Below, piece after piece: positions 1 through 28,114 of a stretch of DNA of 28,114 bases. Source of the DNA: Bryobacteraceae bacterium. GTDB lineage: Bacteria > Acidobacteriota > Terriglobia > Bryobacterales > Bryobacteraceae. The translations under genes and the position numbers were made by a program. The stretch covers positions 1-28,114 of the forward strand of contig JBEKHQ010000001.1 in assembly GCA_050012195.1 (NCBI GenBank). The letters are read 5' to 3'. Below the pieces are notes generated by a model that was not told the origin of the DNA, did no database searches, and worked only from the letters and a program-made list of their open reading frames with translations. Within the stretch, counting starts at the first letter, position 1. The number at the start of each line of letters is the position of its first letter.

Positions 1-465
1 ATGATAGACCTCGTGCGCCATCACCTCCACGCGGTCGCGGTGGCGAGTTGCACGGGCCCACAGCCACCCGCAGAACGCCAGATTCATGGAACGATAACCG
101 TAGCCGTGCGGAACCCATTGCATCAGTATCCGGCGCGGAGCGGGATATTGATCCAATTGCCTGCCTGCCCGGCGCAAGTCGGAGGGACGGAACGCGCCGA
201 GTTCGCGGTGCACGATGACTCCCTCAGCCTGGGGCTGCGGTCCCGGGCAGTCGGGACACCAGACGTGGACTTCATCGCCCTTGGCGGCCAAGCCGGCGGC
301 CACCGCATAGGTGTAATCGCTCACGCCGCCGGTCTGGGGCGGATATTCGCAGGTGAGGATATGCCACGCCAAGGGTTGATCGTGTGTCCGGGGAGAAGAC
401 GATTTCACCGCGTCCGCTTGCGGAGGAGGTGACCGGTGAAGGCTGGCTGGTTGGTCGAGCGGCAT
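1..465 (-). CDS. Glycosyltransferase family 4 protein, N-terminal part (runs off window start)
   Basis: Not in the ORF track. Manual minus-strand translation from ATG at 465: MPLDQPASL...WHILTCEYPPQTGGVSDYTYAVAAGLAAKGDEVHVWCP...RILMQWVPHGYGYRSMNLAFCGWLW...VEVMAHEVYH. The 'ILTCEYPP..GGV.DY' start is typical of GT4 N-terminal domains. The ATG lies 4 nt after the stop of the upstream ORF. Confidence 0.85.
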   Translation of the reverse strand, partial: MPLDQPASLHRSPPPQADAVKSSSPRTHDQPLAWHILTCEYPPQTGGVSDYTYAVAAGLAAKGDEVHVWCPDCPGPQPQAEGVIVHRELGAFRPSDLRRAGRQLDQYPAPRRILMQWVPHGYGYRSMNLAFCGWLWARATRHRDRVEVMAHEVYH

Positions 466-664: not shown

Positions 665-2196
665 GACAATCGCATTTGAAAGGCGGCGTACCGAAGACGA
701 AACGACGCCAGAATCGGCCGAATATAGCCACCTAAGGGCGACTTAAAGATATTCGGCAGCATGAGCAGGCCGTATGCCGCCGCCGTTGCGGCGGCCGTGG
801 CCGCGGCTTCCCCCAGATTGCGAGGCGACCATCGCATCGCAATCCAAACCAGCGCGGTCATAATGACTGCGAAGCGCCAGATCCAGCTTCCCAACATTGC
901 CAATATAAGCCGCCGCACCGTAACGCCGGTATCGCGCGCGATCACCCGCAAATTGAACGGAAGGCTGATCGCGGCCGCGCCCACCACCGAACCGAGCGCC
1001 GCGCCAGGCAACCCGAACAGCATGGTCAACACCAGGCAAGAGCCGGCGCTCACCAAACCGTCGAACAGGTTGGTGAGGGAGATACGGCGCTGATGTCCGA
1101 AACAAAATACCGTGAAGGCGGTAGTGGTGGTCCAATGCCGCACCGCTACGTTGGCTATAAATGCGAGCGTGAGGGCTAAGCCGCCATATTGGCGGGCGGT
1201 AACCCACCAGTCGACAAACCAGTGATTGATCGGCAGCACGACGCACACGATCAGGCCGCTCAAGAACAACATTCCGTGAGTGAGCGAGACTAAGACCTGA
1301 AACATCCTCTCCCGCGACTCGCCGCTCTTTACCTCGCACAAACCCGGCGTGGCGGTTTGCATCAGGATCTGCGCCTGATTGGCCAGCACGCTGATCAGCT
1401 TGCAGGTGCACGCGTAGGGAACCACCGCGGCCGGCCCGAGTAGGCGGCCGATGATCAGTAGATCAGTTTGAGCCATCAAGAGCGTGGCGACTTGCGAAAG
1501 ACAGATCCACATTCCTTTGCCCAACTGGATTTTCGTTTTGATCAGATCGAAGGGCGGCAAGCGGCGGGGCAGGACTTGCGGGAAGCGCGTCCAGATTCGG
1601 TAAAAAATCAGCGGAACGAGCAGGAGTTGGCTAATCAGCCAGCCGGCCGCCAGTGCGAAGAGACTCCATCCGGACCAGACCATCCAGACCGTGGCCGCCG
1701 TGCTGAGTACCCAATTCAAGATCTGGACGCCGCCGGCGAAGGTGAGGTCCTGAAGTCCCTGCAGCAGGGCCGGCAGCATGCGCAGCGGAAAAGCGGCGAC
1801 AAATCCTAACAGAATGAACGTCAAAGGGCCCCGCAGGGCTTGCCATTCGGCGGGAATGGCGAAGAACATCGCGATCGCGATCGCGATCACGACGGGAAGC
1901 TGATAGAGCACCAGGCGGACGGTTTGTCCAACCACCCGAGAGAGGTCCTGGGCTTTCTCGACGCCCCCGGCGCGGCCAGTCGAATAAGCAACTTCCTGGG
2001 GCAACAGCTCCACCACGCCGAAGTCGGTCAGCGAAAGGTATGTAAGCAGTTGCGTGCCCACCAGCCAGAGTCCGTAATCATGTTGGCCGATACGCCGGAG
2101 GTAGAAGGGCGTCAGCCACAGGCCGACGAAAAGGACCATGGCCTGATACCCATAGGTCATGGCCAATCCACCGAGAAAGCGACGTGATCTGCTCAT
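661..2196 (-). CDS. wzx: Wzx-type polysaccharide flippase (MOP superfamily)
   Basis: Many hydrophobic segments. N-terminal 'LTPFYLRRIGQHDYGLW' and mid-protein 'QTDLLIIGRLLGPAAVVPY' are flippase-like. Start moved from 2268 to ATG 2196 (MSRSRRF), which follows GGAAGG and avoids overlapping the upstream gene. Confidence 0.85.
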   Translation of the reverse strand: MSRSRRFLGGLAMTYGYQAMVLFVGLWLTPFYLRRIGQHDYGLWLVGTQLLTYLSLTDFGVVELLPQEVAYSTGRAGGVEKAQDLSRVVGQTVRLVLYQLPVVIAIAIAMFFAIPAEWQALRGPLTFILLGFVAAFPLRMLPALLQGLQDLTFAGGVQILNWVLSTAATVWMVWSGWSLFALAAGWLISQLLLVPLIFYRIWTRFPQVLPRRLPPFDLIKTKIQLGKGMWICLSQVATLLMAQTDLLIIGRLLGPAAVVPYACTCKLISVLANQAQILMQTATPGLCEVKSGESRERMFQVLVSLTHGMLFLSGLIVCVVLPINHWFVDWWVTARQYGGLALTLAFIANVAVRHWTTTTAFTVFCFGHQRRISLTNLFDGLVSAGSCLVLTMLFGLPGAALGSVVGAAAISLPFNLRVIARDTGVTVRRLILAMLGSWIWRFAVIMTALVWIAMRWSPRNLGEAAATAAATAAAYGLLMLPNIFKSPLGGYIRPILASFRLRYAAFQMRLS

Positions 2197-14255: not shown

Positions 14256-15929
14256 TTGATTTTCGACGATCTGCGAGCGATTCAAAAGCAATACGGGTAT
14301 CTGCCGGGCGAGCAACTGGAGGCGCTCAGTAAGCGCACCCAACTGCCGCTGTACCGGATTCACGGAGTGGCCGACTTCTTTCCGCATTTCCATTTGACGC
14401 CGCCGCCCAAGGTCAGCTTCAAGGTCTGCACCGACATGTCCTGCCATCTGTGCGGGGCCGACGATCTGCGCACCGGCCTGGAACAGCGCTTCCAGGGCAT
14501 GAACCCGACCGACCTGAAAATCGGCGAGGTGTCGTGCTTGGGCCAGTGCGACGGAGCGCCCGCGGTTTCGATCAACGATCATATCTATCGCGGCGTCACG
14601 GCCGCGCAGGCCGAAGCGCTGGCGCTCACCGCGCTGGGCGGCAGCGAGTTGCCGCACATGCCCGGCGACGCGCGCGTCACCGGCCTGGCTTCCGATCCCT
14701 ATCGCGACTCCGAGCCCTACGGCGCGCTCCGAACCGCGGTCGCGACGCGCGACTGGACCGGGGTGATCGCGCAACTGAAAGCCGCCGGCCTGAGCGGCAT
14801 GGGCGGTGCCGGATTTCCGACCGGCTTCAAGTGGGAAGCGGTGCGCAACGCGCCGGGTCCGGAGAAGTACGTGGTCTGCAACGCCGACGAGAGCGAGCCG
14901 GGCACCATCAAGGACCGCTTCATTCTGCAGAACCTGCCGCACTTGGTGATCGAGGGCATGATTCTGGCCGGCCTGGTGACGGGCGCGCACCAGGGCATTC
15001 TGTATTTGCGGCACGAGTACGAAGGCGCCGAGCACGTTCTGGCTCACGAGATCGAGCGCTGCTACCGGGCGGGCTTGCTGGGAGCGGGCGTGCTGGGCAG
15101 CGATCTGGCCTTCGATCTGGAGTTGTTCATCAGTCCGGGCGGCTATATCTGCGGCGAGGAGAGCGCCTTGATCGAAGCCATCGAGGGGCACCGGGCGGAG
15201 CCGCGCAACAAGCCGCCCTTTCCGGTGACGCACGGCGTGTTCCACAAGCCCACCGCGCTGAACAACGTGGAGACCTTCGCCAACGTTCCGCAGATCCTGA
15301 TCAACGGCGTGGATTGGTACAAGGGGCAAGGGCTGGGCGGGGCGTCAGGATTGAAGTTCGTGGGCATCAGCGGCGACGTGCGCAATCCGGGGATCTTCGA
15401 GATTCCGATGGGCCTGCCGATGTCGGAAGTGATCTTCAACCTGGCGGGCGGCATCGTGGGCGGAAAAAAGCTGAAAGCCTTCGCGCCGTCGGGACCTTCG
15501 TCGGGTTATCTGCCGGCCGCGGCGGCCGACGTGCGTCTGGACTTCAAGTCGCTGGCCGCCATCGGATCGATGCTCGGCTCGGGCGCCATCGTGATCTGCG
15601 CCGAGGGCCGCTGCATGCTGGACATGGCGCTGAACGCGGTGAAATTCTTCCGCAACGAAAGCTGCGGAAAATGCGTGCCCTGCCGCATGGGGACGCAAAA
15701 GCTGACCGACATTATGACCGGCTGGACGCGCGGCCAGGGCAACCGCTCGGACATGGGCATGGTGGAGGATCTGACCGAGACCTTGAAGCTGGCCTCCATC
15801 TGCGGCCTGGGTCAGTTCGCCCACGTGCCGCTGACTTCGGTGCTGGAGCACTTCCGGCCGGAGATCGACGCGCATGTGTACGACCGGCGCTGCCCGGAGG
15901 GCGTGTGCCCGATGCGCGAGCCATTTTGA
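14256..15929 (+). CDS. NuoE-NuoF fusion (diaphorase module: thioredoxin-like [2Fe-2S] + FMN/NADH-binding + [4Fe-4S])
   Basis: NuoE Cys set 'CTDMSC...SCLGQC'. NuoF motifs 'GMGGAGFPTGFKW', 'NADESEPGTIKDR', 'YICGEESAL', 'NNVETFAN', 'ESCGKCVPCRMG' and 'SICGLG'. Not in a complex I operon. Confidence 0.92.
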   Translation: MIFDDLRAIQKQYGYLPGEQLEALSKRTQLPLYRIHGVADFFPHFHLTPPPKVSFKVCTDMSCHLCGADDLRTGLEQRFQGMNPTDLKIGEVSCLGQCDGAPAVSINDHIYRGVTAAQAEALALTALGGSELPHMPGDARVTGLASDPYRDSEPYGALRTAVATRDWTGVIAQLKAAGLSGMGGAGFPTGFKWEAVRNAPGPEKYVVCNADESEPGTIKDRFILQNLPHLVIEGMILAGLVTGAHQGILYLRHEYEGAEHVLAHEIERCYRAGLLGAGVLGSDLAFDLELFISPGGYICGEESALIEAIEGHRAEPRNKPPFPVTHGVFHKPTALNNVETFANVPQILINGVDWYKGQGLGGASGLKFVGISGDVRNPGIFEIPMGLPMSEVIFNLAGGIVGGKKLKAFAPSGPSSGYLPAAAADVRLDFKSLAAIGSMLGSGAIVICAEGRCMLDMALNAVKFFRNESCGKCVPCRMGTQKLTDIMTGWTRGQGNRSDMGMVEDLTETLKLASICGLGQFAHVPLTSVLEHFRPEIDAHVYDRRCPEGVCPMREPF

Positions 15930-15954
15930 AAAACGAAAGCAACTACAGCAATAG

Positions 15955-18114
15955 ATGAGCGACCAAATCCAACTCACCATCGACGGCATGCCGGTATCGG
16001 TTCCGGCCGGGACCACGGTATTCGACGCCGCGCGCATGCACGGCATCGCGATCCCCACGCTGTGCCATCAACAGAACGAGACGCCGGTGGGAGTGTGCCG
16101 GGTGTGCGTGGTGGACGTGGAGAAGGCGCGCGTGCTGCAGGCCTCCTGCGTGCGTCCGGCGGAAAACAACATGGTGGTGTCCACCAACTCGGACCGGGTG
16201 CGGAGGGCGCGGCACACCTTGGTGGAGCTGCTGATGGCGGATCATCCCAGCCCATGCGCGCGGCAGCGGCAATCCAACGATTGCGAGCTGGAAACCATGG
16301 CGCGGCTGGAAGGCATCACCCAGCCTCGCTTCGCGCGCCGACTGTCGCCGCGCGGCCAGGACAACTCGTCGCTGGTGATCGCGGTGGATCACGAGGCCTG
16401 CATACTGTGCGACCGCTGCATCCGGGGCTGCGACGAGATTCGCCAGAACAACGTGCTGGGGCGGCGCGGCAAGGGCTTCGGAGCGGGCGTGGCGTTCGAC
16501 TACAACCTGCCCATGGGAAATTCCTCGTGCGTGTCGTGCGGGGAATGCATGGTGTCCTGCCCCACCGGCGCGCTCACCAACAAGAGCGTGATCAAGACCG
16601 TGCTGCCGGGCGACCCGGTGAAGGTCGAAGAGCTGCAGCAGCTGGCCTATTTCCAAAAAGTCTCGGGCACGTTTCTGGAGCTGAACAAGAACGCGGTGGT
16701 GCGGCGCCGCTTCCGCAAGGGCGAGATCGTGTGCCGGGAGGGCGAATACGGCTCCACCGCGTTCTACATTTTGGAAGGCCAGGCGCACGTGTATCTGGAC
16801 ACGCCGCTGGCGCACGTCAAGACCGGGGGCGGATCCACCGGGTTTTTCAGCAAGCTCACCAGCCGCCTGGTGGGACGCCAGCAGGAACGGCGCCCGGAGG
16901 AAGGCGCGCGCTTCAGCATTCCCATCGACGCCTCGGTCGACCTGCCCTACGACAATCCGGTGGCCACGCTGGGACCGGGCGACCTGTTCGGCGAAATGAC
17001 CTGCATGAGCCTGTATCCGCGCTCGGCCACGGTGCGCGCGGCCACCGATTGCGTGATGTTCGAGATGCTGCGCAACGTGCTGGACATCATCCAGCGCAAC
17101 AAGACGCTCAAGGCGCAGCTGGACGCCAACTATCGCAAGCGGGCGCTGGACGACCATCTGCGCAGCGTTCCGATGTTCGCCACCATGACGCAGGAGTTCA
17201 TCGACCTGCTGCGCGACAAGGTGGAGCTGGTGCGCTACACCAAGGGCGACATCGTCTGCCGGCAGGGCGACATCGCCGACAGCTTCTACCTGGTCCGGCT
17301 GGGCTTCGTGAAGGTATCGGAACCGCATCCGGGGGGCGAGCTGGTGCTGGCCTATCTGGGACGGGGCGGCTACTTCGGCGAAATCGGATTGCTGGGCGAG
17401 GGGCGCCGCACGGCCACCTGCACCGCGCTCGATCACGTGGAGCTGGTGCGCATCCACGCCGACGAGTTCCACCAGATGGTGGACCGGTTCCCGGAGATCC
17501 GGCACAGCCTGGAGCAGCTGGCCTACGAGCGGCAGCAGCAGAACCGGCAGCGGCTGGAAACCGCCACCAGCATGCCCTTGGACGCGTTCCTGACGCAGGG
17601 CCTGATGGAAGCGCAGAGCCTGTTGGTGCTGGATCTGGAGCGCTGCACGCGCTGCGACGCCTGCGTGCGGGCCTGCGCCGACGCGCACGACGGCGTGACG
17701 CGGCTGATCCGCGAGGGCCAGCGCTTCGATCATTATCTGGTGGCCACCTCCTGCCGGCATTGCCGCGATCCGTTGTGCATGGTGGGGTGTCCGGTGGGCT
17801 CCATCCGGCGCCGCAACTCGCTGGAAGTGATTATCGAGAACTGGTGCATCGGCTGCGGCATGTGCGCCAAGAACTGCCCCTACGGCAACATCACCCTGCA
17901 TCCGTTCAACGTCATGGAGGACGATCCGATGAATCCCGGGCACCGCAAGGCGGTGGTGAAGCAGAAGGCGGCTTCCTGCGATTTGTGCACCGAGCACGCC
18001 GAACCGACCTGCGTGTACGCCTGCCCGCACGACGCGGCGCATCGGGTGGAACCCAACGAATTTTTCCGCTGGCTGGGCACCCCTCTGGCCGCCACCGAGG
18101 CCCAGAAACACTAA
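15955..18114 (+). CDS. Multi-Fe-S protein: NuoG/FdhA-like N-terminal [2Fe-2S] + 2x[4Fe-4S], two cNMP-binding domains, C-terminal DmsB-like 4x[4Fe-4S]
   Basis: 'PTLCH...GVCRVC...ASC'; 'CILCDRCIRGC'; 'CVSCGECMVSCP'; cNMP cassettes 'FGEMTC..PRSATV' and 'FGEIGLL..RRTATC'; then 'CTRCDACVRAC', 'CRHCRDPLCMVGCP', 'CIGCGMCAKNCP' and 'CDLC...CVYACP'. Confidence 0.9.
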   Translation: MSDQIQLTIDGMPVSVPAGTTVFDAARMHGIAIPTLCHQQNETPVGVCRVCVVDVEKARVLQASCVRPAENNMVVSTNSDRVRRARHTLVELLMADHPSPCARQRQSNDCELETMARLEGITQPRFARRLSPRGQDNSSLVIAVDHEACILCDRCIRGCDEIRQNNVLGRRGKGFGAGVAFDYNLPMGNSSCVSCGECMVSCPTGALTNKSVIKTVLPGDPVKVEELQQLAYFQKVSGTFLELNKNAVVRRRFRKGEIVCREGEYGSTAFYILEGQAHVYLDTPLAHVKTGGGSTGFFSKLTSRLVGRQQERRPEEGARFSIPIDASVDLPYDNPVATLGPGDLFGEMTCMSLYPRSATVRAATDCVMFEMLRNVLDIIQRNKTLKAQLDANYRKRALDDHLRSVPMFATMTQEFIDLLRDKVELVRYTKGDIVCRQGDIADSFYLVRLGFVKVSEPHPGGELVLAYLGRGGYFGEIGLLGEGRRTATCTALDHVELVRIHADEFHQMVDRFPEIRHSLEQLAYERQQQNRQRLETATSMPLDAFLTQGLMEAQSLLVLDLERCTRCDACVRACADAHDGVTRLIREGQRFDHYLVATSCRHCRDPLCMVGCPVGSIRRRNSLEVIIENWCIGCGMCAKNCPYGNITLHPFNVMEDDPMNPGHRKAVVKQKAASCDLCTEHAEPTCVYACPHDAAHRVEPNEFFRWLGTPLAATEAQKH

Positions 18115-18119
18115 CGCCC

Positions 18120-18998
18120 ATGCGGATCGATCACACCCACCGTCCCTGGTTCGTCGTCACGCTGATCGCGGCCGCGGTTGCGACGGTCGTGTACATCTTA
18201 TATGCGGTCAACACGCCCACCGGCCCGCGCGGCGGCAGCGCGCTGGGTCTCACGTTCGGCATCCTGGGCTACGGCCTGATGCTGTACGCCGGATTGATCG
18301 GCGCGCGCAAGAAAGTGCCCACCTGGCGCATCGGACGCGGGCAAACCTGGATGCGCGGGCACATCTGGCTGGGCACGCTGAGCCTGCTGATCATTCTGTT
18401 TCACGCCGGCTTCGCGTTTCGAGGGCCGTTGACGACGGCTCTGATGATTCTGTTTTTCCTGGTGATCGCCAGCGGCATCGCGGGCGCGGCCCTGCAACAC
18501 TTCGTGCCCGGCGTCATGACCCAGCGCGTGCCCATGGAGACCATCTACGAGGAGATCCCGCACGTGCGCGTGCAACTGTGCGAGGAGGCCGACAAGCTGG
18601 TGGCCTCCATCTGCGGCCCCATGGACGCCGACGACACCGAGGAGCCCGCCGCGGCCGTCACCACGCTGGTGGAAATCGAACAAGGCGACAAAGCGCGCTT
18701 CCGCGAGATCTATCTGCAGCAGGTCCGCCCCTATCTGGCCGATCCGGAAGCGAGGCAAGCCGACCTGGCCGATCCGCTGCGCTCCACGCAGATTTTCGAA
18801 TCCATGCGCCGGCTGCTGGGCGGGCAGTTGCACGGCGTGCTGGACGATCTGGAAAACATCTGCGAGGAGGAACATCAGTTGAGCCGGCAGATTCGCATCT
18901 ATCGCTGGCTGCACGGCTGGCTGCTGATCCACGTTCCGTTGTCCATCGTATTGCTGGTGCTGGGAGGGGTGCACGCCGTCATGGCGCTGCGCTATTAA
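18120..18998 (+). CDS. Ferric-reductase-like transmembrane protein (putative diheme cytochrome b), 292 aa
   Basis: C-terminal part of the spurious 16062-18998 ORF; the real start is ATG 18120, 5 nt after the upstream stop. About 5 TM helices with two His pairs 14 residues apart: HIWLGTLSLLIILFH and HVPLSIVLLVLGGVH. Confidence 0.8.
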   Translation: MRIDHTHRPWFVVTLIAAAVATVVYILYAVNTPTGPRGGSALGLTFGILGYGLMLYAGLIGARKKVPTWRIGRGQTWMRGHIWLGTLSLLIILFHAGFAFRGPLTTALMILFFLVIASGIAGAALQHFVPGVMTQRVPMETIYEEIPHVRVQLCEEADKLVASICGPMDADDTEEPAAAVTTLVEIEQGDKARFREIYLQQVRPYLADPEARQADLADPLRSTQIFESMRRLLGGQLHGVLDDLENICEEEHQLSRQIRIYRWLHGWLLIHVPLSIVLLVLGGVHAVMALRY

Positions 18999-19002
18999 TC
19001 CC

Positions 19003-20316
19003 ATGGCCGGACGAACCCGCACCACCAAGAAACTGGCGCAGCGCATCAATCTGAATTACTTCAAGACCCTGCGCGGCATCCCGCGCTGGCGGCGCATCCT
19101 GTCCGGCGTTTTGGTCGCGCTCGGCGTCGCGTGGCTGGGCTGGTACGCGCTGGCGGGCACTCCCAAGCCCTATAACGCCGGACCGGTTTCGCACACCCAC
19201 ACCCTGATCGGAGGCAAGTGCGAAACCTGTCACGCGACCCAGGCCGGCTTCGAGCACAGCGCCACCGATAAAGCCTGCCTGACTTGTCACGACGGTCCCA
19301 TTCATCACGCCGAACAGACTTTCTCGCCGGCCTGCGCCAGCTGCCACGTCGAGCATAAGGGCGCGTTTCGGCTGGCCGCCACCACGGACGAAGCCTGCAC
19401 GCAATGCCACGCCGATCTGGCGGCCAAGGATAAGAACGCGCCGCCGCGTTTTGTTTCAAACATCCGCGGCTTCGACGGCACGCATCCCCAGTTCGCGGTG
19501 CTGCGCTCGGGCCGCATCGATCCGGGCACCATCAAGTTCGGCCACCAGGTGCATTTGAAGAAGGATTTACGAGGGCCGCACGGGCCGGTGCAACTGCAAT
19601 GCGCCGATTGTCATCGCCCGCAAGGCTTGAACCAACCCTGGCCGTTCAGTATCGCGCAGATCGCTCCGGTATCGTTGTCGGCCGCCCTGCCCGACCGATC
19701 CTACATGGAGCCGATCAACTACGAAAAGCATTGCGCCACCTGTCACACATTGCAGTTCGACCGGCGCTTCTCCGAAAGCGTGCCGCATAAGGAGCCCAAG
19801 GTGGTGTACGATTTCGTGGTCGAGAAACTGACCGGCTACATCGCGGAGCATCCCACCCAGATTCCGCTGGTGGACGAGCCGGACAAGCGGCTGCCCAGCC
19901 GTCCGCCGCAGCCGCCGGCGCGCAACGCTCGCGAATGGGTGGCCGAGCGGCTGACCGATTCCGAGTTCCTGTTGTGGCGCAAGGCCTGCAAGGAATGCCA
20001 TCTGGAAACCTTTCCGAACGGCAACGACGCGCTGCCGGTGGTAGCCAAGGCGGCCATCACGGCGCGCTGGCTGCCGCATTCCAACTTCGATCACGAAGCG
20101 CACCAGATGGTGGCCTGCGCTGCTTGTCACGCCAAGGCGCCCACCAGCAAGGAGACCTCCGACGTCCTGATCCCCGGCGTCCAGGTCTGCCGCGACTGCC
20201 ATCATGCCGGTAAGGAAGCCGCCGAAGCCCGCTGCTTCGAGTGTCACAACTATCACGACTGGACCAAGGAAAAACCCCCCGTCGGCAAGTTCGCCGTTTC
20301 CCAGCTCGGCCAATAA
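19003..20316 (+). CDS. Membrane-anchored decaheme cytochrome c
   Basis: Ten CXXCH motifs counted (CETCH, CLTCH, CASCH, CTQCH, CADCH, CATCH, CKECH, CAACH, CRDCH, CFECH). Basic N-terminus followed by one hydrophobic helix. Confidence 0.92.
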   Translation: MAGRTRTTKKLAQRINLNYFKTLRGIPRWRRILSGVLVALGVAWLGWYALAGTPKPYNAGPVSHTHTLIGGKCETCHATQAGFEHSATDKACLTCHDGPIHHAEQTFSPACASCHVEHKGAFRLAATTDEACTQCHADLAAKDKNAPPRFVSNIRGFDGTHPQFAVLRSGRIDPGTIKFGHQVHLKKDLRGPHGPVQLQCADCHRPQGLNQPWPFSIAQIAPVSLSAALPDRSYMEPINYEKHCATCHTLQFDRRFSESVPHKEPKVVYDFVVEKLTGYIAEHPTQIPLVDEPDKRLPSRPPQPPARNAREWVAERLTDSEFLLWRKACKECHLETFPNGNDALPVVAKAAITARWLPHSNFDHEAHQMVACAACHAKAPTSKETSDVLIPGVQVCRDCHHAGKEAAEARCFECHNYHDWTKEKPPVGKFAVSQLGQ

Positions 20317-20349: not shown

Positions 20350-23300
20350 TTGCCCCCAGAAACATCCGTTCCGCAAACGATGAATGAGTTATTGGCGCTG
20401 CTCCGTTCGGTCCCTTTCCTGGCTCCATTGACGGATTCCGAACTCGAGCATATCGCTCAACAATCCAGCAGGGAGACCGCGGCGCCCGGCCGCGTAATTG
20501 TGCGCGAGGGCGAAATCGGCGAATGCATGTACGTGATCGTGCGCGGCGCGGTACAGATCCTCACAACTTCTTTCGACGGATCGGACGTCGTGCTGGCGCG
20601 CCTGGAAGCCGGTCAATGGTTCGGCGAACAAGCGCTTCAGCCGGGCGGAACGGGCCGGCGCAACGCCAGCGTCCGGGCGATCGAGGAGTGCAGCCTGGTG
20701 GTGCTGTCGCGCGACCTTCTGCGGGATGTGCTCGCGCAGGACTCCCAGTTGCTGGTCGAGTTGCGCAAGAGAGGAGCAGAGCAGCGAGCGCTGCGCAACA
20801 ACCGCCTTCGGGAGGGAGTGTTTGCGACCCTGGGCTTGGAGTCAGGCTCCCTCGAATATCGCGTAGAGAAATATCCCGCGGGCGAGGCGGTCTTTCATCA
20901 GGGAGACCGCGGAGACCGGCTGTATCTGATCCTGAGCGGGCGCGCGCATGTGGAGCGAACCGAGGGCGGCGAGCGCAGGATTTTGGCCGAGCTGCTGCCC
21001 GGGCAATTTTTCGGCGAGCTCGCAATATTGCGCGACACGCCGCGCAACGCGACCGTGGCGGCAGCCGACGAGCTCGAAGTGGTGAGCCTGGACGGGGAAT
21101 GGTTCCGGCGCGCGCACGATCAAAATCCGGCGCTGCGGTCGTTGATGGAGTCGCTCGAGAGCATGTACCTGCTCCCGCATCGCGGCCTGCTCACGCTGCA
21201 GACGGGACAGTTGGACGGCAAGCCGGCGCTGACGGCGGTGCACAATCTTCCGGACGGCAGGCGCGTCATGAGCACGCGGCTTACCGGCGCGCCCGCGTTC
21301 ACCGCGCAAGTGCTGGACGCGGAGAAATCCGGCGCCGCGTCCGTGATCTACGAGAAGCCGGAGCACGGAATCTACCGCGAGCTGCAGGTCGGCGGCGGCA
21401 AACTGACGGGCCTGGAATCGCAGGGCGAGTGGACCGGCTTGGGCGACATGTTCGGCCGGTTGCTCGACGGCGCGCCGGTGGAGGAATGGCAACTCGCGCT
21501 GTTCCGCGAGCGCGGCGATTTCCGGGTACAGGAAGTTCAGCCGCTCTATGAAGAGAAAGAGATCATCTGCACCTGCACTCACACCAGTTGCGGCAAGATC
21601 ATGCAGGCCATTCGCGACAACTGCACCACCGTGGAACAGGTGGCCAAGCGCACCAACGCGACGCGGGTCTGCGGCGGCTGCATGCCCTTGGTGCGCGAAC
21701 TGCTGGGACAGTCGGATTGGACGGCGGCGCACGTGATCGAGCGCGTCCCGCTGGCGGAGGACGTGCGATCTTTTCGCATCCGCCCGATCGCGGGCGAGTG
21801 CCGGGATTGGCTGCCGGGACAGCACCTGGTGCTCCAGGCGCGCATCGATAATCGTTGGGTGCAGCGCGCCTACACTCTCTCGTGCGCTCCCGGCGGGAGC
21901 TGGTACGAGATCACCGTGAAACGCGAGCCGCAAGGCGTGTTCTCGCGCTGGTTGTTCGATCGCATGCCGCAAGATGCAATGCTGCGCGTGTCGGAACCGG
22001 GTGGCGAGTACCATCTGCCCGCCGATCAGACCGCGGACGTCGTGTGCCTGGTGGGCGGTATCGGCGTAACTCCGGCGCTCGCGATGGCGCGGACTTTGAG
22101 CGCGCGGCCCAGGCCCTTCCGGCTGCATGTGCATTATTGCGCCTCCCAGCCGGACGACCTGGTGGGCCGCGACGAACTGGCGGCGCTGTCACAAAAGAGC
22201 GAACGCATTTCGGTCGAATTCCGCGCCACGCGACTGGAAGGCCGCTTCGGGCTGGAGCAGGTTCGCGAAGTCGCTAATCGTTTTCCGGGCGCGCTCTATT
22301 TCCTGTGCGGAAGCCCGCCCTATATGGATGCCGTGGGCGGGTATCTGCGGGAATGCGGAGTGCCGGAGGAGCGCATTCGCGTCGAGGTTTTTATCGCCGC
22401 GGGCGCCAAGGTGGCTGAGCAGGCGGCCCCCAAACATTGCCCGGTGGATCACGCGGCGCGCGCTTTGGAAACTCCTGCCGCGCCGCTCGAACAGGCGCGC
22501 GCGATGCTGGGCGATTGTTATCGCGAGGCCAACGCTCCGCCGTCGGTTTTCGAGGCGCGCTGGCGCAAGGTAGAGGACGAATTTCAGCTCGACCAGACCT
22601 ATAGCCAGACCTTCGAAGAGCTGGTGTACGCGTCGCGCGTCGCCTGGAGGAACAGCGTCAAATGCATCGGCCGATTGTTCTGGCAAGGGTTGGCGGTCCG
22701 CGATTTCCGCCATGTTCAAACCGAGGACGAGATGTTCGAGGCGATTTTCTCGCACATCGAAACGGCCATGAACGGCGGGAATCTGCGGCCGCTGATCACG
22801 GTCTTCCCGCCCGCGGACAAGGACGGCCACAAGCCGCGCATCTGGAATCCGCAGATTTTTCGCTACGCGGGCTACCGGATGCCGGAGGGCCCTGTACTGG
22901 GCGATCCCGCGAATGTCGAGCTCACCGAAGCCGCGATCCGTTTGGGCTGGACGCCTCCCGCCGCGCGCGGCCGTTTCGACCTGCTGCCGGTGATCCTGGA
23001 AGCGGGAGGCCGTAAGCCGCAGTGGCGCGAGATTCCCAAGCACTTGGTGGTCGAAGTGCCGATTCTGCATCCGCGCTTCGAAGGCTTCCAAAATCTGGGA
23101 TTGAAGTGGTACGCGCTGCGGCTGGTGGCGGGCATGCTGCTCGACGCCGGCGGAGTGCAATACTCGGCCGCGCCCTTTAACGGCTGGAGCATGGGCACGG
23201 AAATCGGCGCCCGGATCTTCAGCGACGTCAATCGCTACAACCAGTTGCCCGAGGTCGCAAAAATCCTGGGACTTGATACCGAAAGCGATCGAACCTTGTG

Positions 23301-23568
23301 GCGCGACCGGGCGCTGGTGGAGCTCAACGTCGCTGTTCTGCACTCCTTCGACAAAGCAGGGATCAAGATCATGGATCACCACGCGGCGAGCGAAGCCTTC
23401 ATGAAGTTCGACGATCAGGAGAGCCGCGCCGGCCGACCCGTACACGCGCGCTGGAGCTGGATCGTGCCGCCGATTTCAGGCTCCGCGACACCCGTATTTC
23501 ATCAGGAATGGACGGATGTCGAGATCAAACCGAACTATGTTGCCCTGCCCGAGCCGTGGAAGGCTTGA
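20350..23568 (+). CDS. nos: Nitric oxide synthase fusion: 2x cNMP-binding, BFD-like [2Fe-2S], FAD/NAD(P)H reductase (FNR-like), NOS oxygenase
   Basis: cNMP cassettes 'FGEQAL..RRNASV' and 'FGELAIL..PRNATV'. BFD 'ICTC...VCGGC'. Reductase 'RAYTLS', 'GVFSRWL', 'GGIGVTP' and 'LCGSPPYM'. NOSoxy 'AWRNSVKCIGR' (heme Cys), 'RIWNPQIFRYAGY', 'PFNGWSMGTEIG', 'IMDHH' and 'WSWIVPPISGSATPVFHQ'. Start is TTG 20350 or ATG 20380. Confidence 0.92.
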   Translation: MPPETSVPQTMNELLALLRSVPFLAPLTDSELEHIAQQSSRETAAPGRVIVREGEIGECMYVIVRGAVQILTTSFDGSDVVLARLEAGQWFGEQALQPGGTGRRNASVRAIEECSLVVLSRDLLRDVLAQDSQLLVELRKRGAEQRALRNNRLREGVFATLGLESGSLEYRVEKYPAGEAVFHQGDRGDRLYLILSGRAHVERTEGGERRILAELLPGQFFGELAILRDTPRNATVAAADELEVVSLDGEWFRRAHDQNPALRSLMESLESMYLLPHRGLLTLQTGQLDGKPALTAVHNLPDGRRVMSTRLTGAPAFTAQVLDAEKSGAASVIYEKPEHGIYRELQVGGGKLTGLESQGEWTGLGDMFGRLLDGAPVEEWQLALFRERGDFRVQEVQPLYEEKEIICTCTHTSCGKIMQAIRDNCTTVEQVAKRTNATRVCGGCMPLVRELLGQSDWTAAHVIERVPLAEDVRSFRIRPIAGECRDWLPGQHLVLQARIDNRWVQRAYTLSCAPGGSWYEITVKREPQGVFSRWLFDRMPQDAMLRVSEPGGEYHLPADQTADVVCLVGGIGVTPALAMARTLSARPRPFRLHVHYCASQPDDLVGRDELAALSQKSERISVEFRATRLEGRFGLEQVREVANRFPGALYFLCGSPPYMDAVGGYLRECGVPEERIRVEVFIAAGAKVAEQAAPKHCPVDHAARALETPAAPLEQARAMLGDCYREANAPPSVFEARWRKVEDEFQLDQTYSQTFEELVYASRVAWRNSVKCIGRLFWQGLAVRDFRHVQTEDEMFEAIFSHIETAMNGGNLRPLITVFPPADKDGHKPRIWNPQIFRYAGYRMPEGPVLGDPANVELTEAAIRLGWTPPAARGRFDLLPVILEAGGRKPQWREIPKHLVVEVPILHPRFEGFQNLGLKWYALRLVAGMLLDAGGVQYSAAPFNGWSMGTEIGARIFSDVNRYNQLPEVAKILGLDTESDRTLWRDRALVELNVAVLHSFDKAGIKIMDHHAASEAFMKFDDQESRAGRPVHARWSWIVPPISGSATPVFHQEWTDVEIKPNYVALPEPWKA

Positions 23569-23675: not shown

Positions 23676-23930
23676 GAAATACCCTGCTGAAGAACTTGCA
23701 GAACCTTGGTACCATCGGGAGGTTACCTGCGCACCCACAAGTGGACGCGGGAGGAAGTCGTAAATCATTGAATTTGCTTTGGCTGAACCCATCCACACGC
23801 TGCGGCGTTTCGAAGTTTCCGCGCCCAATCAATAGGCCCTTGGCGGCAGTACGCCTACATTTAATTTGGGTAGGTGCTCCAGTGACGCCCCTAACCCAAT
23901 GGTTTAACTTTGGGGAAGGGAAATTTAGAG

Positions 23931-26900
23931 ATGCTTAAGCCTTTACATGGCTTATTGTTAGCGGGTTTGCTGGCTGCGCCGGTGCTGTTTGGCCAGGATC
24001 CTCTATGCACCGGCAGCCAAAGCTCGAGTGGCGAAACTTTCGAAAGCAACGGGGGCGCCGGTACGTTTTCCGGAACCGTTACCACTTACTGCGGCCCCCT
24101 GACGTCGGCCACACCCAGCGCGCCCTGGATCAGCATCACCTCGGCGACCGGGACCTTCTCCATCCAGTTCTCGGTTTCTCCGAATACAACGGGATCGAGC
24201 CGTTCGGGCAGTATTACGGCGAAGTTCACAAACCCCGGGATCGAATCTTTCACCTTCTCGGTGACGCAGTATGCAAAGCTGACCTTTACTAGTTCTTCAC
24301 TACCCGTCGGCGCCGTCGGATATCCTTATTCCGCTCAGTTGCAGGTCTCGGGAGGAAGCGATGACTCGCGAAGCTTCTCCATCATTTCAGGCTCGCTTCC
24401 GCCCGGTTTATCCTTATCGGGTTCAACGATCGGCGGAACGCCGACCGGATCGGGAACGACGGCTTCTTTTACCGCGCAAGTCACCGATATCGACCCCAGC
24501 TCCGGCAATCCGTTTTCCGCAACTCAGGGCTTCGAAATAACGATCAATCCCCGATTTACAGCCTCCACAACGTCGCTGCCAGGCGCAACCGTTGGAGTAA
24601 GTTACTCGGCGTCAGTCTCGGCCAGCGGAGGATTTGCGCCGTATGGCTGGTCCCTGATTTCAGGAGCATTGCCCTCGGGATTATCGCTGAATTCCGGTAC
24701 CGGAGCGATCAGTGGAATTCCCGGCGCCAACTCTCAAGGGTCGTATCCGATCACAATCCAGGTGTCCGATCTGCGCGGCGAGACTTTGAACGTACCGCTC
24801 ACGCTGAATGTCGCTGGAACTCCGATTCCCTTAACGATTACGACCTCTACCTTGCCGTCGGCGACTGCGGGAGTGCCTTATAGCGCGTCGCTCACGGCCA
24901 ACGGCGGGACGACGCCCTATGCCTGGTCGGCAGCGGGTCTTCCATCCTGGTTGAGCGTTTCGCCTGCCGGCCAGGTCTCCGGCACACCGCCGGCGGGATC
25001 GGCGGGAAGCTTTCCCTTCACCGCAAAAGTGCTGGACGCCATCGGCCATTCCGCCTCCGCCCCCCTGTCGTTGCAGGTGAACCTTCCTCCCCCTGGTCCT
25101 TTGAGCATTGTCACTACTTCGCCGCTCCCTGATGGAAGAGAAGGCAGCGTCTACAATTTCGGCTTCGTTGCAACCGGCGGAAAAGCCCCATACGAGTGGT
25201 CGGCCACCGGCCTTCCGGCATTCTTGAACCTGGCGCCGAGCGGCAGTCTCACCGGGATACCGTCGGTGGGTTCCGCGGGTCCCTACAGCTTTACTGCGAC
25301 GGTTAGCGACGCCTTGGGAAACAAAGTCAGCGGAACATTCGGCCTGAAAGTGGACTCTTTGACGTCGCTAGGGATCACGACATCCTTGTTGCCGCCCGCC
25401 ACGGTAGGTGTGCCCTATAGCGTTGCGTTCGCGGCCACCGGCGGGACCTTGCCCTATGCGTGGTCGGCTTCCGGCTTACCGTCATGGTTGAGCCTTTCCC
25501 AAGCCGGCCAGCTCTCCGGCACGCCCCCGGCGGGAGCCCCGGTCTCGCTTAGCTTCACGGTGAGCGTCGGCGACTCTGCGGGAAATAAGGCGAGCGGGAT
25601 GTTCAGCCTGACGGTGAACCCGCTGAAATCCACCGTGCTGGTGACCATCATCGTTGCGTCGCCCCTGCCGCAAGCCACCGAAAATCAGCCTTACACAGTT
25701 ACATTCAGCGCCAGCGGCGGCACCGCTCCGTACACTTGGACGGGAGTGGGAGTGCCCTATTGGGCGAATCTCTCGCCGGCGGGCGTGCTCAGTGGAACTC
25801 CGCCGTTCGGCTCCGCGGGCGCCACGCTACTCACGGTCACCGCCACCGATTCGGCGAACAACAGCCAAAGCACGCAAGTCACGCTGGTGGTATTGTCGGC
25901 GAACGGCCCCACCATTACGACGACGTCTCCTCTGCCGAACGCGGCCGCCGGCGCCAATTATCAAATTACGTTGAGCGCCACGGGAGGAACACCGCCCTAC
26001 CAATGGTCGGGTTCGGGCATTCCAGCCGGACTCACGTTGACATCGAATGGACAACTGAGCGGCACTCCCACTACTCAGGGCGTCAATACCGTGACCGCGC
26101 AAGCCACCGACGCGGACCATAACGTGGCGTTCGCGGCGCTGAACTTACAGGTTGCGCCTTCCGCGATCACGATCATCACGCCTACCCCGCTGCCCGCCGG
26201 CGAGGTGAGTGTTTCATATTCGACCGTGTTTCAATCCAGCGGCGGAACTCGGCCACAGTCGTGGAGCCTTGTTTCCGGAACAATACCGCCCGGCACGACT
26301 CTCGATTCGAGCGGAGTTCTGAGCGGCACTCCAACACAGACCGGAGTCTTCGACTTCACCGTAAACGTCTCCGACGAGGGCGTGGCCGACGTCGAGAAGA
26401 CCAAGGCCGTAAAGGCGAACGTCGCCGGTGTTGCCGGCGCCAGCGCCCCGTTCGAAATCACGGTAACGCCTTACGTAACGCCGGATCTAATTCTTTCTTG
26501 CGGCAGCCTGTCGTTCGCGGCGCCCAGCCAAGGGACTGCGTCCCTGCAAACGTGTTCCGTCATCTCGACCGTTTACAACTCGATCCCATTCTCGGTGAGC
26601 GCGAATGTGCCATGGCTGTCGGTGTCGACCGGCGGAATCACGCCGGGCAATCTCGAAATAGGCGCGAATCCCGCCGGTCTCTCGGACGGGGCTCACGCCG
26701 GCACGATCACCGTGTCGTCCCCGGGCGTGACCTCCAAGACTATCCAAGTATCGTTCACCACCAACGCCGAGCTCGAGGCTTCCGGAATCCTGCAAGTTTC
26801 GCCCTCCACTCTGACGCTCTCCAGCCCTGGGTCTCCGGCACTCAACCAGACTCTCTTCCTTCAGAATCTAGGGCAAGGCAATCTGCCTTTCACGGTTTCG

Positions 26901-28114
26901 ACCGACGTTCCCTGGCTGGTAGTAAGCCCACAGTCTGGAACGCTCAGCGGGGAGGGGGCCCTCACGCTACAGGCTACGATTTTGACGCCGAGCCTCGCGC
27001 CGGGCGCATACCTGGGACACATCGAGATCGATTCGCCCTACGGCAGCTTCCAGATCCCGGCCAGCCTGCTGATTTCAGGACAAACGTCAAATTTGGGATC
27101 GCGGCCGAGAATGATACTGAGCCGGGACGGCATCCTGCTGCGTGCACGGCAGGGGAATGGGGTGTCCGGACCGGTCCCGACAACCTTCGAGATTACAGGC
27201 TCCACTAGCACCACGATCAACTATACGGTCAGCCAGGTAGGCGGAGAAGGCTGGCTGACGCTGGTAAGCGACCCGCAAGGCACCGCCTCGAGCACGGTTA
27301 CGGGAACGGTGGCTTTCAAGGCTACGAGCGCTCAATTGCCGAAGGGCGCGTATTATGCGATCTTGCGCGTCACTGCGGCCGAGCCCTTCGACTCGCCTTT
27401 GGATTTCCTGGTGGTCCTGGATGTAGAAGACGCCTCCACGCCGGCCACGCCGGATTCCTACCCCAGCGGCTTGCTATTTGCGGCTGCGGCCGGAACCAAT
27501 CCGCCCACTCAGATGGTGGCCGTCTACACCAGCAACGACAAGCCCATATCGTACCAAGTGGCGATCGAGACGGAGAGCGGCGGAAATTGGCTTTCGGCCA
27601 CGCCGCTGGCCGGCTTCCTCGCTACCCTAACGCCGGCGCAGCTTACCGTGTCGGTGAATACTTCCAATTTGACGCCCGGAATCTACCGGGGCGGGGTCAA
27701 TGTCTCGATCAGCAACCTGGAAGTGCGCACGGTGAACGTCACCCTGATCGTTCCGGACTTGGGTTCTTCCTCGAGCTCGTCGTCGCATGCGGTCTCGAAC
27801 CCGGCTTCGAGCGCCTCCGCCACTCCGGCGGCTGCGTCAACCTGTACGCCCGCCAATCTGGTGTTAACGGAAACAGGTTTGCCCGGCAGTTTCTCGACTC
27901 CCGCCGCGTGGCCCAGTTACATCGCCGTCCAGCTTGCAGACGATTGCGGCAATCCGGTCTTCGGCGGCTACGTGGTAGCCAATTTCTCGAACGGCGATCC
28001 ATCGCTCTCGCTGGCTGCGAACACTGCGACCACGGCGCTGTATTCCGCCACCTGGACACCAGTAAACCCCGTGGCGCAACTCACGATCACGATGCAAGCC
28101 AGCGCTTCGGGACT
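23931..28114 (+). CDS. Large secreted surface protein with BACON-like and eight putative-Ig (He_PIG-like) domains; truncated by window end (>1390 aa)
   Basis: Not in the ORF track because there is no stop codon in the window. Manual translation: signal peptide MLKPLHGLLLAGLLAAPVLFGQ; one BACON-like unit (PWISIT...SRSGSIT); eight 'T.LP.A..G.PYS....A.GG..PY.WS...LP..L.L...G.LSGTP' repeats; four 'WL.VS'-type BACON-like units; then 'CTPANLV...PAAWPSYIAVQLADDCGNPV...ANFSNGDP'. Confidence 0.9.
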   Translation, partial: MLKPLHGLLLAGLLAAPVLFGQDPLCTGSQSSSGETFESNGGAGTFSGTVTTYCGPLTSATPSAPWISITSATGTFSIQFSVSPNTTGSSRSGSITAKFTNPGIESFTFSVTQYAKLTFTSSSLPVGAVGYPYSAQLQVSGGSDDSRSFSIISGSLPPGLSLSGSTIGGTPTGSGTTASFTAQVTDIDPSSGNPFSATQGFEITINPRFTASTTSLPGATVGVSYSASVSASGGFAPYGWSLISGALPSGLSLNSGTGAISGIPGANSQGSYPITIQVSDLRGETLNVPLTLNVAGTPIPLTITTSTLPSATAGVPYSASLTANGGTTPYAWSAAGLPSWLSVSPAGQVSGTPPAGSAGSFPFTAKVLDAIGHSASAPLSLQVNLPPPGPLSIVTTSPLPDGREGSVYNFGFVATGGKAPYEWSATGLPAFLNLAPSGSLTGIPSVGSAGPYSFTATVSDALGNKVSGTFGLKVDSLTSLGITTSLLPPATVGVPYSVAFAATGGTLPYAWSASGLPSWLSLSQAGQLSGTPPAGAPVSLSFTVSVGDSAGNKASGMFSLTVNPLKSTVLVTIIVASPLPQATENQPYTVTFSASGGTAPYTWTGVGVPYWANLSPAGVLSGTPPFGSAGATLLTVTATDSANNSQSTQVTLVVLSANGPTITTTSPLPNAAAGANYQITLSATGGTPPYQWSGSGIPAGLTLTSNGQLSGTPTTQGVNTVTAQATDADHNVAFAALNLQVAPSAITIITPTPLPAGEVSVSYSTVFQSSGGTRPQSWSLVSGTIPPGTTLDSSGVLSGTPTQTGVFDFTVNVSDEGVADVEKTKAVKANVAGVAGASAPFEITVTPYVTPDLILSCGSLSFAAPSQGTASLQTCSVISTVYNSIPFSVSANVPWLSVSTGGITPGNLEIGANPAGLSDGAHAGTITVSSPGVTSKTIQVSFTTNAELEASGILQVSPSTLTLSSPGSPALNQTLFLQNLGQGNLPFTVSTDVPWLVVSPQSGTLSGEGALTLQATILTPSLAPGAYLGHIEIDSPYGSFQIPASLLISGQTSNLGSRPRMILSRDGILLRARQGNGVSGPVPTTFEITGSTSTTINYTVSQVGGEGWLTLVSDPQGTASSTVTGTVAFKATSAQLPKGAYYAILRVTAAEPFDSPLDFLVVLDVEDASTPATPDSYPSGLLFAAAAGTNPPTQMVAVYTSNDKPISYQVAIETESGGNWLSATPLAGFLATLTPAQLTVSVNTSNLTPGIYRGGVNVSISNLEVRTVNVTLIVPDLGSSSSSSSHAVSNPASSASATPAAASTCTPANLVLTETGLPGSFSTPAAWPSYIAVQLADDCGNPVFGGYVVANFSNGDPSLSLAANTATTALYSATWTPVNPVAQLTITMQASASG

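Follow-up and report, generated by a model that had tools for sequence, protein, structure and literature searches.

A Conserved Substrate-Pocket Change in a Nitric Oxide Synthase of Acidobacteriota with Predicted Cyclic-Nucleotide-Binding Domains

Introduction

Among bacterial nitric oxide synthases (NOSs), the scNOS protein from Sorangium cellulosum (Agapie et al. 2009, cited after PMC3701330 and PMC4436077) is a self-sufficient enzyme that generates nitric oxide (NO) with L-arginine (L-Arg) or N-hydroxy-arginine (NHA) as the substrate. SiliNOS of Silicibacter sp. TrichCH4B is of the same type and also produces NO from L-Arg or NHA (PMC4436077). In this study, a stretch of 28,114 nucleotides from a Bryobacteraceae bacterium (positions 1 to 28,114 of contig JBEKHQ010000001.1, assembly GCA_050012195.1; hereafter, the window) was analyzed. 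It encodes an NOS in which three residues of the substrate pocket, Pro344, Tyr367, and Asn/Asp376 in the numbering of murine iNOS, are replaced by Arg, Ser, and Ile (the R/S/I triad). The triad is real, is inherited as a unit, defines a clade, and is under purifying selection.

To our knowledge, every NOS studied, from mammals, Bacillus, Deinococcus, Streptomyces, Sorangium, and cyanobacteria, has the same pocket and the same substrate. Residue 376, which is Asp in iNOS and nNOS and Asn in eNOS and bacterial NOS, lies at the amino-acid end of the pocket and stabilizes α-amino groups. Other contacts have been described for nNOS (PMC6120233). Glu592 of nNOS (Glu371 of iNOS) clamps the substrate guanidinium. 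Tyr588 (Tyr367 of iNOS) hydrogen-bonds the α-carboxyl group, and its mutants are strongly altered in substrate binding and oxidation. Conserved Phe, Pro, and Val residues form a distal hydrophobic pocket, which takes the alkyl chains of non-amino-acid guanidines; such guanidines can be oxidized to NO by NOS (PMC6120233). In rat nNOS V567R, L-Arg binding was lost (Ks > 1 mM) and neutral nitro-Arg was bound at 1.9 μM, an effect ascribed by the authors to repulsion between two guanidinium groups (PMC6120233).

Substrate Pocket Residues

The window protein was aligned with murine iNOS (1noc) by HMMER, and the alignment was free of gaps across the pocket stretch. WYALRLVAGM of the window paired with WYALPAVANM of murine iNOS, and GWSMGTEIGARIF paired with GWYMGTEIGVRDF. 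The substitutions were P344R, A345L, N348G, Y367S, and D376I. Read in the frame from position 20350, the codons at 23119 (CGG, Arg), 23188 (AGC, Ser), and 23215 (ATC, Ile) gave the residues reported in an initial annotation of the window, which was also right about the change of Asn348 to Gly.

The oxygenase domain was searched against 5.8 billion proteins, and the best 120 clusters were taken. The 15 closest clusters (P0001–P0015) had 67–98% identity, 1054–1072 amino acids, and an identical domain set, and all carried R/S/I. Their consensus was W-Y-A-[LM]-R-[LIV]-V ... G-W-S-[MV]-x-T-E-I-G-A-R-I. From P0016 (64–65% identity) onward, all 106 non-clade homologues had Pro, Tyr, and Asn or Asp. 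All 15 clade members thus had Arg at position 344, Ser at 367, and Ile at 376. In the other homologues, Pro344 and Tyr367 each occurred in 106/106, and position 376 was Asn in 105 and Asp in 1. Pro, Tyr, and Asn/Asp were invariant in the animals, Bacillus, Deinococcus, actinomycetes, planctomycetes, cyanobacteria, and myxobacteria examined. If the substitutions were private to the window, as the initial annotation had allowed, close homologues would all have P/Y/N; the 15 closest clusters showed the opposite.

The haem-thiolate motif WRNxx[RK]CIGR was present as WRNSVKCIGR. The residue before the haem Cys, Arg193 in iNOS, was Lys in 15/15 clade members, whereas it was Arg in 105/106 others. 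Position 345, which is Ala in at least 95% of the other homologues, was Leu, Ile, or Val in clade members. Two further changes were biased to the clade, N348G/L and Tyr484-Tyr485 to Val-Ala, and these remove polar groups or bulk near the pocket. The Ala of this pair (residue 1065 of the window protein) occurred in 14/15 clade members, versus Tyr in 71/105 others, and is not fully diagnostic; it removes one more aromatic hydroxyl close to the entrance of the pocket.

The residues that the initial annotation had listed as retained were found in the alignment: the haem Cys (KCIGR), Gln257 (WNPQIF), Tyr341, Val346, Trp366, Glu371, Arg375, and the WxW motif (RWSWIVPP). The guanidinium clamp of Glu371 and the Trp366 backbone was intact, GWSMGTEIG aligning with GWYMGTEIG, and was invariant in the clade. 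The pterin-site residues Arg375, Trp455, Trp457, and Phe470 were also present, with GARI, RWSWIVPP, and PVFHQEW aligning with the iNOS motifs. In the distal wall, Phe363 and Val346 were present and Pro344 was replaced by Arg. The Tyr367 hydroxyl was absent, and neither Asp nor Asn stood at position 376. Since these three features of the substrate pocket were lacking, the label of an L-arginine NO synthase should not be transferred to this protein.

Conservation and Selection

A maximum-likelihood tree was built without the triad columns. The 15 clade sequences formed one branch with a support of 99 in the Shimodaira–Hasegawa-like approximate likelihood ratio test (SH-aLRT) and a stem of 0.17 changes per site. 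This branch was nested among canonical NOS proteins that carry cyclic-nucleotide (cNMP)-binding domains. In a scan of species-representative genomes, the triad was found in four genome records: two metagenome-assembled genomes (MAGs) of Bryobacterales and one each of Terriglobia and Acidobacteriaceae. All 42 remaining NOS loci of that scan (actinomycetes, planctomycetes, Deinococcus, and others) were canonical. Joint Genome Institute (JGI) metagenomes were scanned at the DNA level for the pattern W-[S/T/C]-M-x-T-E-I-G-A-R-I. Seven NOS genes were recovered, with long frames of NOS length or frames running off the contig end. Arg344 was present in 6/7, that is, in every contig that reached position 344, and no partial-triad intermediate was seen among the seven genes.

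Six DNA copies (the window, L002–L005, and L048) were compared. The ratio of nonsynonymous to synonymous substitution rates (dN/dS) of the oxygenase domain was 0.06–0.19, where dS ranged from 0.56 up to saturation. Constraint was also evident in the reductase and cNMP parts, with dN/dS of 0.08–0.26. The codons of Arg344 (CGG/CGC) and of the Lys before the haem Cys (AAA/AAG) varied synonymously, and Ser367 was AGC and Ile376 was ATC in 6/6 copies.

Among the columns conserved to at least 95% in the 106 non-clade homologues, 5/95 were replaced in the clade: R193K, P344R, A345(L/I/V), Y367S, and N376I. The changes affected 3/9 conserved substrate-pocket columns versus 2/86 others (one-sided Fisher p = 0.005); this test was post hoc, and its nine pocket columns were listed from established NOS structures. 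One of the two changed columns outside the pocket, 345, adjoins 344.

At least 14 metagenome runs from peat or bog contained the pocket stretch. In Logan contigs from three peat metagenome runs, 23096–23247 was covered with zero base differences; the window itself may derive from one of the three, so the agreement is at most partly independent confirmation.

In an RNA run, the peat metatranscriptome X16, one contig of 134 bases matched 23395–23528 with two differences and lay outside the triad. This contig is at most a weak hint of in situ transcription of the window gene or a close relative.

Predicted Product and Fold

The window protein had the Pfam domain order cNMP-cNMP-BFD[2Fe-2S]-FAD-NAD-NOS oxygenase (Table 1). 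PF00027 matched it in two stretches (E 1.4e-45). The match of PF02898 scored 496 bits against a cut-off of 22.7 and covered profile positions 6–362 of 362. The reductase order of PF04324, PF00970, and PF00175, followed by PF02898, is the scNOS-type self-sufficient layout. An NCBIfam search gave no match to an NOS model. The predicted product is an intact self-sufficient protein of the scNOS type, with the reductase N-terminal and the haem-thiolate oxygenase C-terminal. The two N-terminal cNMP domains are a probable on/off gate. The true start is probably ATG at 20380 (MNELL...) and not the TTG of the open-reading-frame finder, because the 98%-identical homologue P0002 has 1062 amino acids, 10 residues fewer than the TTG frame.

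Two likenesses were recorded in the reductase part. Residues 327–454 of P0001 (window ~21328–21711), the linker and BFD domain, matched a segment of NirB, the nitrite reductase large subunit (TIGR02374 positions 336–467, E 5e-14, falling well short of the model cut-off). For the FNR module of the window NOS, the closest likeness was to the reductase part of flavohaemoprotein (Hmp).

The three-dimensional structure of the oxygenase was predicted by AlphaFold2 from a 121-sequence alignment, with a predicted local distance difference test (pLDDT) score of 94.4. A model from the 15 clade sequences alone was discarded (pLDDT 43.9). In Foldseek, the accepted model matched Arg-bound B. subtilis NOS (1m7v) with template modeling (TM) scores of 0.93/0.96 and a root-mean-square deviation (rmsd) of 1.2 Å, and it thus has the NOS fold. 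The changed positions should still line the pocket in this model, because the predicted backbone superposes on the solved NOS at 1.2 Å. By homology and fold, the window protein belongs to the NOS oxygenase family and to the scNOS-type fused enzymes.

Substrate Recognition

The conserved and selected change of the pocket is strongly supported, and its functional effect is inferred. The reading favored here, at a probability of roughly 0.45, is that substrate recognition was retooled under selection and that the substrate may carry one positive charge fewer than L-Arg. The clade enzyme probably does not handle L-arginine as every studied NOS does. The pocket would have been rebuilt as a unit at the root of a single acidobacterial clade. 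Ser would have taken the place of the Tyr whose hydrogen bond holds the α-carboxylate of L-Arg, Ile that of the Asn/Asp at the amino-acid end, and a cationic Arg that of the Pro in the hydrophobic Phe/Pro/Val wall beside the guanidinium, with the catalytic and cofactor residues all unchanged. Since the pocket has gained one positive charge and lost polar anchors for a zwitterion, a substrate with one positive charge fewer than L-Arg appears most likely. Glu371 and Trp366 would still hold an N-H donor over the haem, and electrons would still be supplied by the enzyme's own reductase. Free L-arginine would not be bound in the canonical pose. Candidate substrates are guanidino compounds lacking an α-ammonium group, such as 4-guanidinobutyrate, 5-guanidinovalerate, 2-oxo-arginine, and N-acyl-arginine, or alternatively a neutral N-oxygenated guanidine. 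The expected product would be NO or a related N-oxide, released on cAMP/cGMP.

A different guanidino substrate had been suggested in the initial annotation, for example one lacking a free carboxylate (agmatine or a peptide Arg). The altered recognition is supported by these results. A substrate without a carboxylate is not favored, because Gln257 and Tyr341, which contact the carboxylate, are kept; agmatine is further disfavored by the lost anchors for the amino-acid end and because the added cation of Arg344 should repel this doubly cationic molecule. An Arg engineered two residues away on this wall of rat nNOS (V567R) likewise prevents binding of L-Arg but not of neutral nitro-Arg (PMC6120233).

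Several points weigh against a substrate with reduced charge. Gln257, Tyr341, Arg382, and Asp379 around the amino-acid end are retained, and given these residues L-Arg could still bind in a shifted pose. N348G/L, Y485A, Y484V, and A345L make the cavity more apolar, and such a cavity would suit an apolar tail better than one that bears a carboxylate. No recurring gene of guanidino-acid or arginine catabolism was found beside the clade NOS in the loci examined. The charge-balance argument itself is reasoning from textbook NOS structure.

A less likely explanation is that the enzyme remains an L-arginine NO synthase with re-wired anchors. Arg344 would form a salt bridge with the α-carboxylate in place of Tyr367, Ser367 and Gly/Leu348 would give Arg344 room, and Ile376 would be tolerated, the α-amine being held by Glu371 and a haem propionate. 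This is the sole NOS in the five carrier genomes, and the ancestral function may persist there. The clamp of Glu371 and Trp366 is kept together with Gln257, Tyr341, Val346, and the pterin residues; the three changes arose together, as expected of compensatory changes; and scNOS and SiliNOS, the characterized enzymes of the same self-sufficient architecture, produce NO with L-Arg or NHA as the substrate. However, the invariance of Pro, Tyr, and Asn/Asp across diverse groups suggests that L-Arg turnover does not easily tolerate other residues at these positions. In nNOS, an Arg engineered on the same wall abolishes L-Arg binding, and Tyr588 mutants strongly alter substrate binding and oxidation (PMC6120233). 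A neutral compensatory swap would also leave unexplained the subsequent fixity of the new residues, which extends to single Ser and Ile codons in 6/6 DNA copies.

More doubtful still is a departure from guanidine chemistry, in which Arg344 would serve as a built-in guanidinium folded onto Glu371 and tune the distal hydrogen-bond network. Unspecific peroxygenases have such a Glu/Arg pair above their haem-thiolate. The enlarged apolar amino-acid sub-pocket would take a new substrate, and the possible chemistry includes NAD(P)H-driven reduction of nitrite to NO in oxygen-poor peat, consumption of NO/O2, and oxygenation like that of P450 or peroxygenase. In this reading, the clade enzyme would be gated by cAMP/cGMP and would be the first natural member of the NOS fold outside arginine chemistry. 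Pro344 is part of the distal Phe/Pro/Val pocket near the haem, and the Arg side chain is estimated, from NOS geometry, to be long enough to bridge about one guanidinium width toward Glu371. The other pocket changes of the clade (Y367S, N376I, N348G/L, Y485A, and Y484V) remove polarity or bulk, and peat and bog are the habitat. For NOS, tuning of O2 activation by the guanidinium of the substrate, via the distal hydrogen-bond network, has been described (PMC4856417). Against this, the nNOS V567R protein was low-spin with no other notable feature; by itself, a pocket Arg thus did not mimic a bound substrate (PMC6120233). The pterin-site residues are conserved, as for ordinary NOS chemistry, and no nitrite or nitrate gene was linked to NOS in the examined loci.

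A sequencing or assembly error or early gene decay, which the initial annotation had raised and which the fragmented state of the window's MAG (803 contigs, 74.6% completeness) might suggest, has a negligible probability and is ruled out in practice by the same residues in 15 protein clusters, four other genomes, and metagenome contigs, the identical bases at the three codons in the Logan contigs (one run perhaps being the window's source), the open frame of 1072 codons, dN/dS of 0.06–0.26 across all three gene parts, and the two base changes needed for Tyr to Ser (TAC to AGC).

With all three replacements kept by selection, this natural lineage offers an existing experiment on what determines NOS substrate specificity. 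Should the substrate be other than L-arginine, the clade enzyme would be the first with the NOS fold to have another substrate or reaction. In that case, annotations of "nitric oxide synthase" in soil and peat metagenomes could not be taken to mean that NO is made from arginine. Through its fused cNMP domains, the enzyme offers a testable link between second-messenger signaling and its product. Nothing relevant on NOS in Acidobacteria, cNMP-fused NOS, or natural variants at 344/367/376 was found in the literature searched, the coverage of which was incomplete.

Genomic Context

The five carrier genomes had one NOS match each, which was the variant, and no canonical NOS paralogue was found in them. 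NOS was present in 2/401 sampled Acidobacteriota genomes, that of the window and G192 (locus L053). The NOS of L053 was canonical (P/Y/N) with planctomycete-like motifs (WRNAERCVGR and GWYLxTEIAARN). NOS is thus patchy in Acidobacteriota and has more than one origin.

The features of the window are listed in Table 1. The upstream set (14256–20316) was syntenic with Bryobacterales MAG locus L002 and was not conserved in other clade members. L005 carried nuoEF and the beginning of the Fe-S gene 8 kb downstream of NOS. The neighbors of P0005 and P0014 also differed from the NuoEF, Fe-S-cNMP, and multihaem set of the window. In P0014, a clade member of 69% identity, the strand of NOS also carried a GAF-GAF-nucleotidyl-cyclase gene ending 55 bp upstream of it, and just beyond this gene subunits I and II of cytochrome bd oxidase were encoded. 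This cyclase could plausibly supply the cyclic nucleotide that the N-terminus of NOS would sense.

Two arrangements absent from the window recurred elsewhere. Downstream of NOS in L003, L004, L005, L057, L058, L059, and L061, genes of the two-domain VOC/glyoxalase, MIP channel, SDR, and GH63-like hydrolase types formed a convergent block. A divergent GDE-like glycoside hydrolase gene of ~670–700 amino acids lay upstream of NOS in L002, L003, L048, L056, L057, L059, L061, and L062. Both look like inherited synteny. The recurrent neighbors of the clade loci named no guanidine or nitrogen-oxide pathway.

Table 1. Coordinates of the NOS gene, its domains and pocket residues, and the adjacent genes in the window. 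Residues are those of the window protein, with murine iNOS equivalents in brackets.
Feature	Position	Protein residues	Strand	Remark
NuoE/NuoF-like fusion	14256-15926		+	Upstream of NOS
Fe-S protein with NuoG-type clusters, cNMP-binding domains (three Pfam stretches), and 4Fe-4S ferredoxin motifs	15955-18111		+	
Multihaem cytochrome c	19003-20313		+	Directly upstream of NOS
Whole NOS gene	20350-23568		+	Open frame, 1072 codons from TTG 20350
First cyclic-nucleotide-binding domain	~20407-20740	~20-130	+	Pfam PF00027
Second cyclic-nucleotide-binding domain	20866-21123	173-258	+	Pfam PF00027
BFD-like [2Fe-2S] domain	21562-21708	405-453	+	Pfam PF04324, E 5.6e-11
FNR-like reductase module, FAD-binding and NAD-binding	21730-22335	461-554 (FAD), 568-662 (NAD)	+	Pfam PF00970, PF00175
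NOS oxygenase domain	22486-23562	713-1071	+	Pfam PF02898, E 6e-149
Haem-thiolate Cys and preceding Lys	22660-22665	Lys771-Cys772 (Arg193-Cys194)	+	Cys kept
Pocket Arg and Leu	23119-23124	Arg924 (Pro344), Leu925 (Ala345)	+	Codon 924 is 23119-23121, CGG
Pocket Gly	23131-23133	Gly928 (Asn348)	+	Gly or Leu in clade; polar (E/N/D/S) in most others
α-Carboxylate anchor position	23188-23190	Ser947 (Tyr367)	+	Codon 947, AGC
Guanidinium clamp	23200-23202	Glu951 (Glu371)	+	Retained
Amino-acid-end position	23215-23217	Ile956 (Asp376, Asn in bacterial NOS)	+	Codon 956, ATC
Val-Ala pair	23539-23544	Val1064-Ala1065 (Tyr484-Tyr485)	+	Numbering counted along the HMMER alignment to murine iNOS
Secreted protein of >1400 amino acids, He_PIG Ig-like repeats (seven stretches) and BACON domains	23910-28112		+	Directly downstream of NOS; runs off the end

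Comparison with Known Systems

The window protein shares with scNOS and SiliNOS the inverted layout of an N-terminal reductase ([2Fe-2S], FAD, and NAD(P)H) and a C-terminal oxygenase (PMC3701330, PMC4436077). The oxygenase had 52–55% identity to the Sorangium homologues, and Val346 was found in both. In contrast, the Sorangium-type proteins have N-terminal EF-hands, and the window protein has two cNMP-binding domains. The former have the canonical Pro344/Tyr367/Asn376, and the latter has Arg/Ser/Ile. NO synthesis has been demonstrated for the Sorangium type, whereas the window protein is known from its sequence.

The nearest relatives were the canonical cNMP-cNMP-BFD-FNR-NOS proteins of uncultured bacteria (P0016–P0046), including Methylomirabilota, Planctomycetota, and Bradymonadia MAGs. 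They had the architecture and length of the window protein, with 57–65% identity; none appears to have been characterized. They differed in having P/Y/N and Arg before the haem Cys, where the window protein has R/S/I and Lys. B. subtilis NOS (1m7v) and the murine iNOS oxygenase (1noc, 1nod) matched the window protein with TM scores of 0.93–0.96, an rmsd of 1.2–1.4 Å, and 46–50% identity. The haem Cys, the Glu/Trp clamp, Gln257, Tyr341, and the pterin-site Arg and Trp were shared with these structures. Unlike the window protein, these enzymes have Pro, Tyr, and Asn/Asp at 344/367/376 and lack a fused 2Fe-2S/FNR reductase and cNMP domains.

Rat nNOS V567R and the Tyr588 mutants are laboratory analogues of two of the three natural changes, with an Arg cation on the distal hydrophobic wall in the former and a missing hydroxyl for the α-carboxyl group in the latter (PMC6120233 and its references 33 and 34). 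These mutants are single, artificial, and mammalian, with the Arg at 567 and not at 565, whereas three to five jointly selected changes are combined in the natural clade.

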